Of a stretch of 40,766 bases of DNA, positions 1,292 through 13,949 are shown piece after piece. The position numbers and the translations under genes are program-made. Below the pieces are notes generated by a model that saw only the letters and a program-made list of their open reading frames with translations, was not told where the DNA came from and ran no database searches. The stretch lies in sequence record OZ035791.1, one strand, 5' to 3'. The stretch comes from Kagunavirus LF7074P3. Position 1 is the first letter of the stretch, and each line of letters starts with the position of its first letter.

Positions 1292-2785
1292 ATGGTTTCC
1301 GCAAACATTAACGCAGGGCAAGGGCAGAACGTTAAAACCCGCCACCGCCAGTACGAAGAGTATTTCCCTAAGTGGCAGAAGGTGCGACATGCGCTTTCTG
1401 GCGACCTGACATCGTATCTACGTGACGTCAGTAAGAACGAGCCGGACCCGGTTTACGGTCTCCAGCGTCAGGCTGAATACGAAGCGGGGGCAATTTGCTA
1501 CAACTTCACCAAGCGAACGCTTTCAGGCATGGTCGGCAGCGTAATGCGCAAAGACCCCGAGATGATTATTCCGTCTCAGATGGAATACCTGACCACTAAC
1601 TGTGACGGGTCGGGCGTTGGCCTGTGGCAGCACGCACAGGATACTCTGTATGAGATTGATGCTGTTGGTCGCGGTGGTTTGCTGGTTGACGCCCCCGCGG
1701 TAGAAGTAGCTACCATGGCAGAGCAAAACGAGGGTTTACTAAACCCAACAATCGCTTTCTACACCGCAGAGAATATCATCAACTGGCGTCTCCAGCGCGT
1801 CGGGTCTGTTAATCGTGTGGTTATGGTTGTATTGCGTGAGGAATACGAGTACACCGATGGCGCGAATGAGTTCCGCCCCAACTACGGCGAGCAATACCGA
1901 GTCCTTGATATTTTCGAAGGCCAGTATCGCCAGCGTCTGTACCGCTTTAACCAGAAAGGTGCACTGACGGAAGGTGGCTATATCGAAATATTCCCGAAAC
2001 TCGGTAATATTCCGGTCGGGGTGATTCCGTTCACGTTCATCGGCGCGGGAAATAACGACTCAACCCCTGACGATGCACCTTTGCTGCCGTTGGCTGAACT
2101 TAATATCGGGCACTACCGCAACAGCGCGGACAATGAGGAGTCCAGCTTCGTCGTAGGCCAGCCTACTCTGTTCATCGCCCCCGGTGAGAACATGAGCATG
2201 GGACAATGGAAAGAAGCCAACCCTCGCGGAGTGCGTATGGGGTCACGTTCTGGCCATAACATCGGTTACGGCGGCAATGCGTTTCTGGTCCAGGCCGGTG
2301 AGAACAACCTAGCCAAGCAGAACATGTTGGATAAAGAGAACCAGGCAATCCAGATTGGTGCACAGCTTATTACCCCGACGCAGCAAATCACCGCGGAATC
2401 GGCACGCCTGCAACGCGGCGCTGATACGTCCGTTATGGCAACAATCGCACGTAACGTAAGCATGGCGTATACCGATGCGTTGCGCTGGGTCGCGGGTATG
2501 CTTGGGCTTAGCGACAGCACTGAAATTGAGTTCAAACTGAACATGGAGTTCTTCCTGCAACCAATGACCGCTCAGGACCGCGCGCAGTGGATGGCGGATA
2601 TTAACGCGGGCCTGTTACCGGCTACCGCTTACTATGCTGCGTTGCGTAAGGCGGGGGTAACTGACTGGACAGACGAGGACATTAAGAACGCTATCGAGGA
2701 TGCGCCTCTGCCATTAGGTGCTGTTGCTCAGGTGGCTGGGGAGATTCCGCAGTCGGCGCAGCAAAAAGACCCCACCCAGCAGTAA
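1292..2785 (+). CDS. portal protein (positional call)
   Basis: 497-aa ORF 12 nt downstream of terL, size and position typical of portal; no motif verified. Confidence 0.7.
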   Translation: MVSANINAGQGQNVKTRHRQYEEYFPKWQKVRHALSGDLTSYLRDVSKNEPDPVYGLQRQAEYEAGAICYNFTKRTLSGMVGSVMRKDPEMIIPSQMEYLTTNCDGSGVGLWQHAQDTLYEIDAVGRGGLLVDAPAVEVATMAEQNEGLLNPTIAFYTAENIINWRLQRVGSVNRVVMVVLREEYEYTDGANEFRPNYGEQYRVLDIFEGQYRQRLYRFNQKGALTEGGYIEIFPKLGNIPVGVIPFTFIGAGNNDSTPDDAPLLPLAELNIGHYRNSADNEESSFVVGQPTLFIAPGENMSMGQWKEANPRGVRMGSRSGHNIGYGGNAFLVQAGENNLAKQNMLDKENQAIQIGAQLITPTQQITAESARLQRGADTSVMATIARNVSMAYTDALRWVAGMLGLSDSTEIEFKLNMEFFLQPMTAQDRAQWMADINAGLLPATAYYAALRKAGVTDWTDEDIKNAIEDAPLPLGAVAQVAGEIPQSAQQKDPTQQ

Positions 2786-2795
2786 GTTCACATAT

Positions 2796-2816
2796 AGCCC
2801 CGAAAGGGGCTTTCTT
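2796..2816 (+). terminator. rho-independent terminator
   Basis: AGCCCC-GAAA-GGGGCT hairpin followed by TTCTT, 11 nt after portal stop. Confidence 0.6.
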
Positions 2817-2821
2817 ATAGT

Positions 2822-3898
2822 ATGCTATTAACTTTAGCGCCACAGGGTTTATCTATGAGCTTACTTACATCACTAATCAGCCACCAGATATGGCTGCAAC
2901 GAACCGCATCCGGTGAGGTGAAAGACCTCGCGCCGTTCATTAAGGAGATGCGGGACGAAATCAAACGGCAGGTGCTGCTATTCGGCGACGGCGGTCGCAG
3001 CACTGCGCGACTGAATAAACTGTTACGTGACCTTGAAGAAGCACTGACAGGACTTACTGGTGACTGGCAAACAAAGCTGGCAGAAGACCTCAAGGAACTG
3101 GCGGTGTATGAAGCTGAGTGGAACGTAAAGACCCTGACCGCCAACGTAGATGCGGAATTTGTTACGCCCACCGCCGAACAGGTGTGGGCCGCTGCTGAGT
3201 TTCAGCCATTATCATTGAGTGGCAAGCCAGTTGATTTCACTAAACTGATGTCAGGTTGGGGTGAAACGGAAGTAGCACGTCTTGTAACCGGCGTTAAGAT
3301 GGGCTTTGTACAAGGTCAAACAACACGGCAGATTGTTAAGAATGTAGTAGGCGCCGGTGGGCTGGCTGACATCTCTGAGCGTAACGCCGCTACCGTCATC
3401 CGCACCGCGCTGTCTCACGTGTCCAACGAAGCCCGTAACGAGACGTACCGCCAGAACGACGACATCATCGAGAAGTACGAGTGGGTGTCAACGCTGGACA
3501 GCCGTACCAGTACGATTTGCAGAGCCAGAGACGGAATGACGTGGGAAATTGGTAAAGGGCCGATGCCCCCTGCCCATCCGAACTGCCGGTCGTGCACGGC
3601 TCCGGTAATCAGTTCCGAGTTCGACTTCCTCGATAAAGGCGCAAAACGCGCGGCTAAGGGCGCCGAAGGCGGTACTCAGGTAAGTGCGGACACCACCTAT
3701 TACGAGTTCCTGAAACAACAACCGGCATGGTTTCAGGACCAGGCGCTCGGCCCTGTTCGCGGTAAGATTTTCCGTAACAGCGGTATATCGCCGGAAGAGT
3801 TTCGCGTAATATCTGTAGATGGTTTCGGGAACCCGCTGACGCTTAAGCAGATGGCGGAACTCGATAAACGTGTTGCTGATTATCTGAAAGGGGAATAA
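2822..3898 (+). CDS. head morphogenesis / minor head protein (positional call)
   Basis: 358-aa ORF following portal; start codon uncertain (2822 or 2855); stop overlaps next ATG (TAATG). Confidence 0.55.
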   Translation: MLLTLAPQGLSMSLLTSLISHQIWLQRTASGEVKDLAPFIKEMRDEIKRQVLLFGDGGRSTARLNKLLRDLEEALTGLTGDWQTKLAEDLKELAVYEAEWNVKTLTANVDAEFVTPTAEQVWAAAEFQPLSLSGKPVDFTKLMSGWGETEVARLVTGVKMGFVQGQTTRQIVKNVVGAGGLADISERNAATVIRTALSHVSNEARNETYRQNDDIIEKYEWVSTLDSRTSTICRARDGMTWEIGKGPMPPAHPNCRSCTAPVISSEFDFLDKGAKRAAKGAEGGTQVSADTTYYEFLKQQPAWFQDQALGPVRGKIFRNSGISPEEFRVISVDGFGNPLTLKQMAELDKRVADYLKGE

Positions 3899-10569: not shown

Positions 10570-10574
10570 AACTA

Positions 10575-10597
10575 AGGCCCCGAAAGGGGCCTTTTTC
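10575..10597. terminator. bidirectional rho-independent terminator
   Basis: AGGCCCC-GAAA-GGGGCCT hairpin + TTTTT; sits between convergent genes (9397..10569 + and 10598..11152 -). Confidence 0.8.
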
Positions 10598-11152
10598 TTA
10601 CAAACCTAATTTTAAAGCAATGTCTATAACGTTCGATTTAACGTCACCTGGTAGGATGTAGGTGTCGTAATCTTTTACACCGCTAACATCATACAGATAA
10701 CCGCGGCTGTCCCCCTCAAACGTATAGCCTTCTCGGTGCAGGCGAACGATTCTTACATCATGACCCGCGGCGACGATAGGGGCCACTTCGCTGGCGAACC
10801 CGCCGTCGGACACTACAAAAACTTCGTTGCCGTCGGGCAAGTTTTCAGCAAGATACTTACCGAAATAATCACTACCAAGTACCGGTTTAATGAATTGCTC
10901 AGATATAGCAATCATGAACTGACGCCGCGACAAGCCATTAAGGAAGCCTTCTGGCTTTTCTTTCCGCGCTCGGTCGTCGTAGCCGTCGAGAAACTCGTGG
11001 TAAGCACCCGGGCCTAACGCTGCCAGAGCAATATTGAACATTGGATTCTTGAAACTGGTAGTTCCCTTCGCAAAGCCCATCTCTACCAGCGCCATAGCAA
11101 GTGTGTCTTTCCCGCAACCCGCAGGGCCATTAAGAATAATTACCATAGCCAT
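10598..11152 (-). CDS. P-loop nucleotide kinase (dNMP-kinase-like)
   Basis: 184-aa ORF with Walker A GPAGCGKDT at N-terminus (SGKDT resembles T4 gp1-type dNMP kinases); start overlaps upstream stop (TAATG). Confidence 0.55.
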   Translation of the reverse strand: MAMVIILNGPAGCGKDTLAMALVEMGFAKGTTSFKNPMFNIALAALGPGAYHEFLDGYDDRARKEKPEGFLNGLSRRQFMIAISEQFIKPVLGSDYFGKYLAENLPDGNEVFVVSDGGFASEVAPIVAAGHDVRIVRLHREGYTFEGDSRGYLYDVSGVKDYDTYILPGDVKSNVIDIALKLGL

Positions 11153-11637
11153 TACTTATCACTCCCGTGCGATTTTAAGTGTGTAGAGTTCCCGTTACAG
11201 TCGTATTCAGTAACCGCGTGAGTGGTTATACCGAGGCCACGGAAATGCTTTATTACCGCTGGCGAGTCGTCGAATGCGCACAAGATTCTTTCCAGCCCGA
11301 TAGTACGTAGCACCTCTTCCTTAATTACGATGTCTTTTCTGTTGTCGTGTTTGCTGCGCATGATTAACTGATAAAATTCGACGCGGTGGCGCTGCAACCA
11401 CATTCTGGTTTCTTTTTCCGCGTCATCACTACGGCCTGTTAAGATAATAACGGCATAGCGACGATTAAGGGCGTTACACAGTTCGATGTTATCTTTAATG
11501 GGTGCATCGTCTTTGCACGCCATGTTAAATGGTTTCCACGCCCAGGTTTCGCCGTAGTTATCTTTCGGCAGCAGGTGTAAACGATGAGCACCATCTGCCA
11601 ATGTCCCGTCTAAATCGAAAATCACAATATCTTTCAT
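11152..11637 (-). CDS. HAD-family phosphatase, T4 Pnk 3'-phosphatase-like
   Basis: 161-aa ORF; N-terminal DLDGTL (DxDGT nucleophile motif), later TGRSDD, RKDIVIKEEV and AFDDSP segments paralleling T4 polynucleotide kinase phosphatase domain (recall-based). Confidence 0.65.
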   Translation of the reverse strand: MKDIVIFDLDGTLADGAHRLHLLPKDNYGETWAWKPFNMACKDDAPIKDNIELCNALNRRYAVIILTGRSDDAEKETRMWLQRHRVEFYQLIMRSKHDNRKDIVIKEEVLRTIGLERILCAFDDSPAVIKHFRGLGITTHAVTEYDCNGNSTHLKSHGSDK

Positions 11638-12770
11638 CCAAGCATCTCCGGTGAAATAGTTAAACGTGCGACCTCGCCATATTCGGCGCTATAAGTAATT
11701 ACGTTTGCACTGCGGCCCGACATCCACCCACCGCGGGAGGCATATGCATCTTTAGCCGCGAGAGTGCGGTGTTGCTCAACAATCATGTTACGGCTTTCTA
11801 CAATCTTTTGGTGGTGCAGGTGACCCACGTGGGCGTAGCTGTAAACACTCTCTCCGAACGCTTTGCGGAACTTGGCGATCATAACCGGTTCGATAGCGTC
11901 GAATCGTGCTTTATGCCCATGATGGAAGAACAGCGTCGTTTTGCCGTGTTGCACCATCTTGTAAACATCCGGCGACGTATCGACGAACACACGCGGCTCA
12001 TTGTCGTACAGCGTACTAAACATCTCAGCTAACCAAATCATTCCGCTTTCGTCGTGGTTACCTTGCACGATAAGCAAGCGAACATTTTTATGTTTAACGA
12101 GAGCCATATCAATGACACGGCGGACCATACGAATCATGTAGCGTACAAGTTTCTGATAGCGGGTGTCAGCGTCAAGAACATGGCCACTTGCGGGTGTAAC
12201 GGCATCCAGACTATCGAAGTGCGCGAAGTCACCTAGCAGGTTAATAACTCCTGTTCCCGCATCTGGCGCTTTCTGAAACGCTGCGTCGAACCATCGAGAG
12301 AACAGGTCTTCTGCGATTTTCATATCCCAGTCGTCGCCGCTCTCGTCGGCCCATGCCAGCATACCGAGATGAAAATCAGATACAGTGTAAAGATTGAGTA
12401 GCTTGTCGTCACGTTTGGTGCGCACGGCTTTAACCGGCGCAACGGGGGTAATCTCTGACTTCATGCCCTCAATTACGGCTTTCATAGCCTCTAACTGTTT
12501 CTCTTTATCCGGCTCGGAAATCACCCACGTCATCACCTCTTCGCCATTAGCCTTTACGCAAGCGGATATTCTTTTAGCAGAGAACCCTTCCGCTATGCGT
12601 TTGGATATTACTGGGTCGTTCCCGTGACCTATGCCCTTCTTGGCTAATCGTGCTTTACGGATACGAATTACGCGGTCTGAGATGCCGTATTTACGGGCGA
12701 TGTCTATATTCCTCATCCCGGCGCTCAATTCTTCCTGTAACTGTTCGTCGGTTATTTTCTTCTGGGCCAT
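11634..12770 (-). CDS. metallophosphoesterase with N-terminal HTH domain
   Basis: Calcineurin-like motifs SDFH, GDFAHFD, GNHDE, HHGH, GHLHH; N-terminal HTH-like ...IDIARKYGISDRVIRIRK...; ATG 12770 chosen (RBS GAGGAAG); track ORF extends to 12875. Confidence 0.65.
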   Translation of the reverse strand: MAQKKITDEQLQEELSAGMRNIDIARKYGISDRVIRIRKARLAKKGIGHGNDPVISKRIAEGFSAKRISACVKANGEEVMTWVISEPDKEKQLEAMKAVIEGMKSEITPVAPVKAVRTKRDDKLLNLYTVSDFHLGMLAWADESGDDWDMKIAEDLFSRWFDAAFQKAPDAGTGVINLLGDFAHFDSLDAVTPASGHVLDADTRYQKLVRYMIRMVRRVIDMALVKHKNVRLLIVQGNHDESGMIWLAEMFSTLYDNEPRVFVDTSPDVYKMVQHGKTTLFFHHGHKARFDAIEPVMIAKFRKAFGESVYSYAHVGHLHHQKIVESRNMIVEQHRTLAAKDAYASRGGWMSGRSANVITYSAEYGEVARLTISPEMLG

Positions 12771-12808
12771 GCTTACTTCCTCGTGTTTAGGATTTGTCCT
12801 ATAGTAGC

Positions 12809-13000
12809 CTACTTCTCTTTCACGTTCGAGTTGCAAGCCCAGATTAAAATAAAGACCCACGGCAGCAGAACCCAACCAAGAAACAGATTAGCCATGAATA
12901 TCGCTAACTTCGCTTTATGGTTACGGAAGTACGCAACCAGGAAAGGCGCGAAATAAGCGAGCAGTGCAAACAGAATTAAGGAAACTGGTAAACTGGACAT
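12809..13000 (-). CDS. small 2-TM membrane protein, superinfection-immunity (Imm) family-like
   Basis: 63 aa from ATG 13000 (RBS AAGGGG); ...AYFRNHKAKLAIFMANLFLGWVLLPWVFILIWA... resembles Imm_superinfect-type small membrane proteins (recall-based). Confidence 0.45.
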   Translation of the reverse strand: MSSLPVSLILFALLAYFAPFLVAYFRNHKAKLAIFMANLFLGWVLLPWVFILIWACNSNVKEK

Positions 13001-13030
13001 TTTAAACCCCTTCATTGTTGGTGTAAGTGA

Positions 13031-13059
13031 ATAGTACCCTATTATATTGGGGTGTGCAA
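13031..13059 (-). promoter_or_regulatory. sigma70-like promoter TTGCAC-N17-TACTAT driving the minus-strand island
   Basis: Minus-strand reading cTTGCACaccccaatATAATAGGGTACTATTCAC; 32/34 identical to promoter at 34757-34790. Confidence 0.6.
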
Positions 13060-13167
13060 GTAATGTGATAGAATAAGTTTGCGCCTAGTGTCGCACACGA
13101 AAAGCGGGTGGTTCCCGTCTGGCGCATTTATCGTTAACCTGTAACCTCTTAACCAAAGGATTAAAGA

Positions 13168-13584
13168 ATGAAACTTTCTGATTTTTATTTCGAAGAGAAA
13201 GCACTGGTAGGCAAGAAGATGCCCATTCTGCTGCCAAACGGCGAAGACTCCGGTGAATGGCTTAACGTTGTAAGTCCCGATGCGGATGTCGCCGTTAAAG
13301 CGGGGCGTGCTTTCATTATTGCGTACCGTCGCGGGTTGGCGCGTTTCGAAGAACTGGAAAAAGCCGCCAAAGAATCCGGCGACTATACTGAATATAACCT
13401 GGCTATTAACGAACTGGCGGAAGACCTCAACCGGCAACTCGCGGCAGAAGTCGTAAACGGCTGGAGCTTTGATGAGCCTTTCTCTAAAGAAGCATTTAAC
13501 AAATTGCTGGACCAGTTCAAGGCATTAGGCACACAGGTAGCAGCGTTCCATAACGCTGAGCGCAAAGCATTACAGGAAAAGTAG
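13168..13584 (+). CDS. tail assembly chaperone (G-like)
   Basis: 138-aa acidic ORF immediately upstream of tape measure gene; RBS AGGA; ends at slippery G GAA AAG TAG. Confidence 0.55.
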   Translation: MKLSDFYFEEKALVGKKMPILLPNGEDSGEWLNVVSPDADVAVKAGRAFIIAYRRGLARFEELEKAAKESGDYTEYNLAINELAEDLNRQLAAEVVNGWSFDEPFSKEAFNKLLDQFKALGTQVAAFHNAERKALQEK

Positions 13585-13949
13585 ACGCGCTGTACAGGTT
13601 CGCCACCTATGAGTTTGTGGATAAGCATAAAATCAGAGAGTTTGATTCTATAGCCGACGGACACGAACAGGCGCTTATCGCGATGGGTGTAATCGATAAG
13701 AAAAAACGTGCAGCGCGACGGGGTGGGCCAGAATGCCCGCCCCTTTTTATATCCACCTTCGAGACGTACTGCGACATTAAGTTTACGCGACACGTGCGCG
13801 AGGACGCTGTAGTATTGTTCGCAAGAGAATCCGTTACGTGGCAAGACCTGAAAGCCTATCTCGATGTTACGCAAAAACAGCTTAGCCTGTTCGAGATAGA
13901 CATTATCATGGGCTTAGAAGCAATCTTTGAAGGTAGAAATCATGGCTGA
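13560..13949 (+). CDS. tail assembly chaperone -1 frameshift extension (T-like)
   Basis: -1 frame is open from 13560 to 13949 overlapping the end of 13168..13584; slippery heptamer G GAA AAG at 13575-13581 resembles lambda G-T site G GGA AAG. Confidence 0.4.
   Translation, partial: AQSITGKVDALYRFATYEFVDKHKIREFDSIADGHEQALIAMGVIDKKKRAARRGGPECPPLFISTFETYCDIKFTRHVREDAVVLFARESVTWQDLKAYLDVTQKQLSLFEIDIIMGLEAIFEGRNHG
13575..13581 (+). other. candidate -1 programmed frameshift site
   Basis: G GAA AAG immediately before stop TAG of the chaperone ORF. Confidence 0.4.

Follow-up and report, generated by a model that had tools for sequence, protein, structure and literature searches.

A widespread phage protein family that joins a helix-turn-helix domain to a metallophosphoesterase core: architecture, gene context and possible function as a DNA nuclease

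We analysed the 40,766-nucleotide stretch of Kagunavirus LF7074P3 recorded as OZ035791.1 (hereafter the window) and, within it, the leftward gene at 11634-12770. The gene product was confirmed to comprise an N-terminal three-helix helix-turn-helix (HTH) domain joined to a C-terminal metallophosphoesterase (MPE) core with five metal-ligand motifs. This HTH-MPE protein is one more member of a known, catalogued and experimentally unstudied phage family, and the present analysis establishes its domain architecture, motif conservation, fold class, operon structure and recurrent neighbours. From the fold, the motifs and the gene neighbourhood, we propose that the protein is an HTH-tethered, metal-dependent DNA nuclease, a proposal to which we give about an even chance.

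Domain architecture, catalytic motifs and family

The gene, its domains and its motifs are located as follows.

11634-12770, minus strand: HTH-MPE coding sequence, 378 amino acids plus a TGA stop at 11634-11636, ATG at 12770; orthologue of K1G gp22 and T1 ST16
12776-12782, minus strand: ribosome-binding site GAGGAAG, 5 nt before the HTH-MPE ATG, read from the sequence
12639-12749, minus strand: N-terminal HTH, residues 8-44, of the LuxR/GerE, sigma-70 region 4 or Fis-like type, from AlphaFold2 helices and profiles
12411-12638, minus strand: connector, residues 45-120, a flexible linker, conserved beta-hairpin and helix; family-specific, from AlphaFold2 and conservation
11637-12410, minus strand: MPE catalytic core, residues 121-378
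12369-12377, minus strand: motif I, D132-F-H134 (in VSDFHLG), invariant in 58 sequences; parallels SbcD TSDWHLG
12213-12233, minus strand: motif II, G180-D181-F-A-H184-F-D186; G180 and D181 invariant, H184 and D186 at least 90% conserved
12051-12062, minus strand: motif III, G237-N238-H239-D240; N238 and H239 invariant
11913-11924, minus strand: motif IV, H283-H284-G285-H286; H284 invariant
11814-11825, minus strand: motif V, G316-H317-L-H319; G316 and H319 invariant

A family alignment was built from the window protein and 57 representatives, 32-49% identical to it, that were selected after searching 1.84 billion cluster representatives. With this alignment of 58 sequences, AlphaFold2 returned a model with a predicted local distance difference test score (pLDDT) of 93.2 and a predicted template modelling score of 0.80; a single-sequence run gave a pLDDT of 40. 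In the alignment-based model, the HTH helices (residues 8-16, 21-28 and 32-44) have a pLDDT of 94-96. The linker after them (45-60) is predicted with less confidence and leads into a conserved beta-hairpin (63-87) and then a helix (89-106). The MPE core ends the protein, its last strand finishing at residue 378, and all extra elements are N-terminal. These helices, together with the HTH profiles and MPE motifs described below, bear out the fusion of an HTH to a calcineurin-like phosphoesterase that a first-pass annotation of the sequence had proposed. That annotation placed about 70 residues ahead of the catalytic part; the actual figure is about 120.

In the window protein alone, the HTH is matched weakly by GerE/LuxR (E=0.009, 16 bits against a Pfam cutoff of 23.5), and an NCBIfam search with the whole protein returned only LuxR-type regulators below threshold. 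Pfam matches in other family members reach 1.5e-9 for Sigma70_r4_2, 2.4e-8 for GerE and 2.6e-7 for HTH_8/Fis. Searched against PDB sequences, the family profile found its best matches over residues ~10-59 in GerE, DesR and RhlR. A distant Vibrio phage member, which tblastn aligned from residue 79 only, still starts with TxRQREV...AAAKxLGIxxRxV. By these sequence comparisons, the HTH is conserved across the family, distant Vibrio phage members included.

According to the alignment, the most conserved N-terminal residues are not those of the recognition helix; they are G50, G76 and W82 of the connector, with G76 and W82 nearly invariant. Neither a Pfam scan nor a search of the family profile against the PDB matched residues 45-120 to a known domain.

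Across the 58 relatives, D132, H134, G180, D181, N238, H239, H284, G316 and H319 are invariant, and at least 90% of the sequences retain H184, D186, D240, H283, H286 and H317. Because these residues persist in relatives of such low identity to the window protein, the motifs are not a chance occurrence. All five motif blocks listed in the first-pass annotation are present at the coordinates that we checked; the second reads GDxxHxD and not the strict GDxxD given there. The same annotation had remarked that the first block is SDFH rather than GDxHG, which proved correct: motif I, VSDFHLG, is of the type found in E. coli SbcD (TSDWHLG), and this explains its departure from GDxHG. The MPE models of Pfam did not reach their gathering thresholds (PF12850, 22.2 bits against 27; PF00149, 18.8 against 21.5). 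The family is thus too divergent for these models, and its membership of the superfamily rests on motifs and fold. Taken together, motifs and fold suggest a phosphodiesterase that binds two metal ions, probably Mn2+.

The family is catalogued as PHROG 704 ('DNA repair exonuclease'), to which residues 3-377 align over profile positions 1-389 of 390 (E=4e-160). Using tblastn, we found the HTH-MPE sequence in 2,049 of 50,697 phage records, of which 1,733 cover at least 80% of the protein, and among clusters built at 50% identity, 4,542 matched at E<=1e-3 and 1,105 at E<=1e-30. The phages include Guernseyvirinae, Drexlerviridae (T1-like, Webervirus and Tlsvirus) and the podovirus LIMEzero, as well as Vibrio, Rhizobium, Roseovarius and Campylobacter phages detected by tblastn. 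Among GTDB genomes, copies occur in proteobacterial prophages of Pseudomonas, Brucella/Ochrobactrum, Rhizobium, Sphingomonas, Ralstonia, Bordetella and others, with genes for terminase, portal, endolysin, DnaB, NinB and Q-like proteins on their flanks. Members already carry NCBI names such as 'winged helix-turn-helix domain-containing protein', 'metallophosphoesterase', 'DNA repair exonuclease' and 'Nuclease MPE...', the last being a name derived from a Pseudomonas putida protein. The architecture had at first been thought unusual. It is real yet not unusual, since it is catalogued at full length and widespread in phages and prophages. The family name 'DNA repair exonuclease' is an automated guess.

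The 40.8-kb window approximates a complete Kagunavirus genome, that is, a K1G-like siphovirus of the Guernseyvirinae and an E. coli phage, and its gene order matches that of the annotated K1G genome. Over the 2.7 kb surrounding the HTH-MPE gene, identity is 99.9% with Kagunavirus LF7074P1 and 92-94% with K1G, K1ind and related E. coli phages. At the protein level, identity is 100% to the LF7074P1 copy (tblastn) and about 89% to K1G-type proteins. Within the gene, the linker and hairpin region (residues 45-120; 12411-12638) of the window protein, GHGNDPVISKRIAEGFSAKRISACVKANGEEVMTWVISEPDKEKQ, is like that of 'Sponge'-type Escherichia phage proteins (~80% overall identity) and unlike the K1G-type sequence, GHGRDVSHLVPDGYKIKGTSSLVDEFGNTKLQWVKTDTDAERQ. 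This pattern suggests mosaic exchange within the HTH-MPE gene.

Fold relatives and gene neighbourhood

In the predicted model, the core fold is a beta-alpha-beta-alpha-beta sandwich superimposable on solved MPEs, and it carries the SDxHLG-type motif I that characterizes nuclease-type MPE cores such as those of Mre11 and SbcD. Fold comparison scores were 14.0 for LpxH, ~13.5 for MJ0936-type phosphodiesterases, 9.5 for the P. putida nuclease MPE and ~9 for protein phosphatase 5. Foldseek returned generic MPE matches, with Rv0805 (the best PDB match), Mre11 and DP1 at the top. Judged from the model, the nearest structural relatives of the core appear to be the nuclease-type MPEs DP1, Mre11 and SbcD. 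Their margin over non-nuclease MPEs is modest, and the predicted fold suggests a nucleic-acid phosphodiesterase without proving one.

A phmmer search of the PDB with the HTH-MPE protein gave only spurious armadillo-repeat matches. When the family profile was aligned to single sequences with hhalign, SbcD and T5 A1 aligned at motif III only, too weakly to inform, and lambda NinI gave nothing. A PPP-type protein phosphatase of the lambda NinI kind was considered and rejected on the fold ranking and on motif I, which is not GDxHG.

To describe the neighbourhood of the family, we fetched 80 viral and 65 genomic loci using a 10-sequence alignment as the query and clustered the neighbouring genes. 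The genomic context is DNA metabolism throughout. It comprises a helicase, VRR-NUC and Dam module in T1-like phages, a DNA polymerase, exonuclease and endonuclease in LIMEzero, and SSB and an endonuclease in Vibrio phages. In lambdoid prophages, the HTH-MPE gene is the last of a nin-like region (NinB, NinG-like) and lies directly before a Q-type antiterminator.

Enzymes of the deoxynucleoside monophosphate (dNMP) pool recur in these neighbourhoods. In 39 of 124 diverse loci, representing 15 MPE lineages at 70% identity, such an enzyme is encoded on the same strand within a few genes of the MPE. A dNMP kinase (phrog_139/PF21448) is encoded at 21 loci and an HD-type deoxyribonucleoside 5'-monophosphate phosphatase (phrog_318) at 20, usually at +1 to +3; a dATP/dGTP diphosphohydrolase domain (PF18909) is found at 10 loci and a HAD phosphatase at 3. 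Several of the kinase genes share 4 bp with the start of the MPE gene. The order MPE-HAD-kinase recurs in LIMEzero-like podoviruses.

In the window, four closely spaced leftward genes separate the major tail gene from the tail assembly chaperone, and the HTH-MPE gene is the second of them. The other elements of this operon are listed below.

13041-13069, minus strand: sigma-70-like promoter candidate ATCACA-17-TATAAT, 10/12 matches in a consensus scan; a pattern match only
12809-13015, minus strand: operon gene 1, 68-aa membrane protein of the superinfection-immunity (Imm) family (PF14373, E=9.3e-13; phrog_1039, E=4.7e-23)
11152-11637, minus strand: operon gene 3, HAD phosphatase of the polynucleotide-kinase 3'-phosphatase type (PF25109 HAD_PNKP, E=3.6e-19; phrog_415, E=9e-66)
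10598-11152, minus strand: operon gene 4, dNMP-kinase-family P-loop protein (GPAGCGKDT; phrog_139 'deoxynucleoside monophosphate kinase', E=2.3e-43)
10574-10593, no strand assigned: candidate bidirectional intrinsic terminator with a perfect, GC-rich 8-bp stem and T-runs on both strands, located where the major tail and dNMP-kinase-like genes converge

The HAD and dNMP-kinase-like genes are translationally coupled with the MPE gene: the HAD start overlaps the MPE stop (ATGA) and the dNMP-kinase-like start overlaps the HAD stop (TAATG). Among PDB entries, the HAD phosphatase is related to Pnkp1 (4xrp, 4.9e-6) and T4 PNK (1ltq, 4.4e-3). Pfam and PDB matches of the dNMP-kinase-like protein are at the level of the P-loop only. 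From its sequence, the hairpin at 10574-10593 is likely a bidirectional intrinsic terminator. The first-pass annotation had also raised autoregulation by the HTH; a search of the operon promoter region for an inverted-repeat or palindromic operator that might serve it found nothing convincing.

The Imm gene heads the leftward operon, a moron-like insertion that divides the major tail gene from that of the tail assembly chaperone. The chaperone gene (13168-13584, plus strand) is followed by an overlapping open reading frame downstream (13617-13949, plus strand). The K1G equivalent of this pair is annotated as a joined, programmed-frameshift product, which is ordinary for siphoviruses.

Proposed function and alternatives

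As a DNA nuclease, the protein would act as follows. The predicted HTH would tether the enzyme to DNA through the family-specific hairpin-helix connector, and the MPE core would cut DNA in the infected cell using two-metal (probably Mn2+) chemistry. In the version that we prefer, host DNA would be broken down, and the products would pass to the HAD phosphatase and the dNMP kinase for reuse in phage DNA synthesis. The targeting of the enzyme to DNA, which the first-pass annotation had suggested, is the most economical role for an HTH with predicted DNA binding. Catalytic competence is supported by the metal-ligand positions, which are invariant or at least 90% conserved in the 58 sequences. We infer, in turn, that the core binds metal, that its substrate is DNA, that the HTH binds DNA, that the target is the host chromosome and that cleavage is coupled to salvage.

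A narrower proposal, which we advance tentatively and consider rather doubtful, is that PHROG 704 is the long-sought nuclease with which T1-like phages degrade the host chromosome, a compact equivalent of T5 A1 in a single polypeptide. Both T1 and TLS break down the host genome and recycle its nucleotides, and as of 2024 the responsible gene was unidentified (PMC11447400). The HTH-MPE family is a concrete candidate for this function in T1-like phages. If it were a host-chromosome nuclease, the proposal would name the gene behind host degradation and nucleotide reuse in T1 and TLS, a property described in 1981 (PMC11447400). According to Roberts and Drexler (1981), transduction is improved in T1 mutants with a defect in degrading host DNA. 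Generalized transduction would therefore also be affected, which would bear on the safety assessment of therapeutic phages: thousands of phages carry the family, T1-like, Jersey-like and Klebsiella phages of therapy collections among them. More broadly, HTH-guided MPE nucleases combined with dNMP salvage would constitute a widespread strategy, one used by Drexlerviridae, Guernseyvirinae, some Autographiviridae and many lambdoid prophages. If the protein instead serves ordinary recombination housekeeping, the result is a routine annotation.

Several points weigh against a DNase that feeds nucleotide salvage. Beside Kagunavirus MPEs of ~88% identity, a 76-aa DUF3310-like gene takes the place of the HAD and kinase genes, and most of the distant relatives also lack the pair. 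Enzymes of the dNMP pool are absent in about two thirds of the loci, and their presence elsewhere may reflect no more than a general tendency of DNA-metabolism genes to cluster. Temperate prophages commonly carry the family, and in them a non-specific, host-destroying DNase would have to be tightly controlled; such a DNase would also require some way of sparing the phage's own DNA. Homology to T5 A1 past the superfamily level is unproven by the sequence comparison, in which the hhalign probability was 20.7%. Finally, the searchable literature on Kagunavirus, Guernseyvirinae and Drexlerviridae consists of genome descriptions, with no functional study of the family.

The principal alternative is that the protein processes the ends of the phage's own DNA in recombination or replication, as an SbcD/Mre11-like nuclease in which the HTH replaces Rad50/SbcC as the DNA-binding partner. 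It would trim hairpins, ends and stalled intermediates during concatemer formation. Fold and motifs argue for this alternative to the same extent as for the breakdown of host DNA, recombination genes adjoin the MPE gene (NinB, NinG-like and RusA-like in prophages; VRR-NUC in T1-like phages), and phage annotation pipelines use the label 'DNA repair exonuclease'. Against this, no Rad50/SbcC-like ATPase is annotated in the K1G genome or found among the recurrent neighbours in 83 + 124 flanking regions, the HTH-MPE protein has no capping domain, and K1G-like phages possess a separate exonuclease and Holliday-junction resolvase. Moreover, the Kagunavirus gene lies with Imm in an accessory, moron-like operon outside the replication module. 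We consider this alternative unlikely, although it is the strongest of those considered.

The remaining alternatives, namely hydrolysis of cyclic nucleotides, RNA healing and regulation, are each less well supported than a DNA nuclease. One is that the protein is a counter-defence phosphodiesterase directed at the cyclic (oligo)nucleotide signals of CBASS, Pycsar, type III CRISPR or Thoeris-like systems, its HTH being autoregulatory or incidental. The best Foldseek match in the PDB, Rv0805, is indeed a cyclic-nucleotide phosphodiesterase; the operon is variable and accessory, with a superinfection-immunity gene adjacent; and the very wide spread of the family is typical of anti-defence genes. 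Motif I is nevertheless of the SbcD type, the defence-related models of PADLOC gave no meaningful match, and a family-wide DNA-binding domain is hard to explain on a small-molecule hydrolase. The neighbours, too, are genes of DNA and nucleotide metabolism and not known anti-defence genes. Such a function seems improbable.

More improbable still is RNA end healing, in which the protein, like the MPE domain of Clostridium thermocellum Pnkp, would act as a 2',3'-cyclic phosphodiesterase and, together with the HAD 3'-phosphatase and the P-loop kinase, would repair tRNAs cut by host anticodon nucleases. The adjacent HAD is of the PNKP type, with Pnkp1 (of an RNA-repair complex) and T4 PNK as its best PDB relatives; the order of the trio recurs in LIMEzero-like podoviruses; and the operon is translationally coupled. 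The kinase, however, is of the dNMP-kinase family (phrog_139, GKDT P-loop) and not of the polynucleotide-kinase type, no RNA ligase is annotated in K1G-type genomes, and the HAD and kinase genes are absent beside most members, the Kagunaviruses with 88%-identical MPEs among them. We set this function aside on these three grounds; in addition, one would not expect an RNA repair enzyme to carry an HTH.

Least probable of all is a protein that is mainly a transcription regulator, for example of late genes, with the HTH as the working part and the MPE as a sensor or accessory: the position directly upstream of a Q-like antiterminator in lambdoid prophages (11 loci at +1), a weak match to phrog_836 'late transcriptional activator' (E=0.0023) and an HTH of the LuxR or sigma-70 region 4 type are outweighed by the conservation, which is highest at the catalytic residues and among the lowest in the recognition helix, by the lack of an operator-like repeat in the local promoter region and by the differing regulatory contexts in which Kagunavirus and T1-like phages place the gene.

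Comparison with known systems

Among characterized MPEs, SbcD/Mre11 and archaeal PolD DP1 share 12-17% sequence identity with the HTH-MPE protein. The motifs of the family, SDFHLG/GDFAHFD/GNHD/GHLH, compare with SDWHLG/GDVFD/GNHD/GHIH in SbcD. Mre11 and SbcD possess a C-terminal capping domain and helices that bind Rad50/SbcC, whereas the HTH-MPE protein has neither; as its chain ends with the MPE core, it leaves no room for a capping domain. DP1 has an OB domain and a polymerase partner, both likewise lacking here. Where these proteins have other elements, the HTH-MPE protein has its N-terminal HTH and hairpin-helix connector. The MPE of P. putida (PDB 6NVO) is an Mn2+-dependent single-stranded DNA endonuclease (PMC7826289). 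Like the HTH-MPE protein, it stands alone, with no Rad50 partner.

In phage lambda (locus 3041-3890), NinH, a Fis-like HTH protein (PMC7166090), and NinI, a Ser/Thr phosphatase of the MPE fold, are encoded in succession just before Q. The HTH-MPE gene of lambdoid prophages occupies the same slot and shows the same order of HTH and MPE. The similarity of NinH to the family amounts to a generic 27-residue HTH core (probability 50%), and NinI, a PPP-type phosphatase, has no detectable specific relationship to it. The resemblance is therefore one of position only.

A functional parallel is offered by T5 A1, considered here together with Dmp and A2. A1 is a pre-early predicted metallophosphatase that is both required for the degradation of host DNA and sufficient for it, and the authors of that study likened it to double-strand break-repair nucleases and polymerase proofreading subunits; a dNMP phosphatase, Dmp, is encoded near A1 (bioRxiv 10.64898/2026.04.02.716235). 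T5 A1 thus shares with the HTH-MPE protein its being a phage MPE, the same structural relatives and a nearby dNMP phosphatase. The layout of an HTH followed by an MPE is also that of the T5 A1 family (T5 locus 1706-3376): many A1 relatives (~530 aa) have N-terminal HTH domains of the Pfam families HTH_23, HTH_38, HTH_7 and CENP-B_N ahead of a C-terminal MPE. The C-terminal half of A1 carries the MPE motifs GDIH, SNHDLALxRWL, HGH and GHTH. Aligning the two families with hhalign gave a probability of 20.7% (E=1.1e-3) over 153 columns, with motifs III-V in register, a result that is statistically insecure. The part in register includes a C-terminal 'ITY' strand and an extra S-x-WL after NHD.

The two proteins also differ. 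T5 A1 has 556 aa, with a conserved ~200-aa middle domain (residues ~100-290) where the HTH-MPE protein has a ~75-aa connector; its motif II is HDVxDF...NHH, as against GDFxHxD; and it is also required in second-step DNA transfer, a T5-specific process. Given the low probability of the alignment and the extra middle domain, we regard T5 A1 as a functional analogue and not as a proven close homologue. Another phage MPE, Gp48 of mycobacteriophage A10ZJ24, disrupts host genome integrity (PMC12287305).

T1 ST16, labelled 'DNA repair exonuclease', is 44% identical to the HTH-MPE protein over its full length (378 residues). In T1 (40822-41955), its gene lies downstream of the dam methyltransferase gene and before the lysis genes. 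PHROG 704, T1 ST16 (YP_003929.1) and K1G gp22 belong to one family of the same full-length architecture, from which the HTH-MPE protein of the window does not differ in substance.

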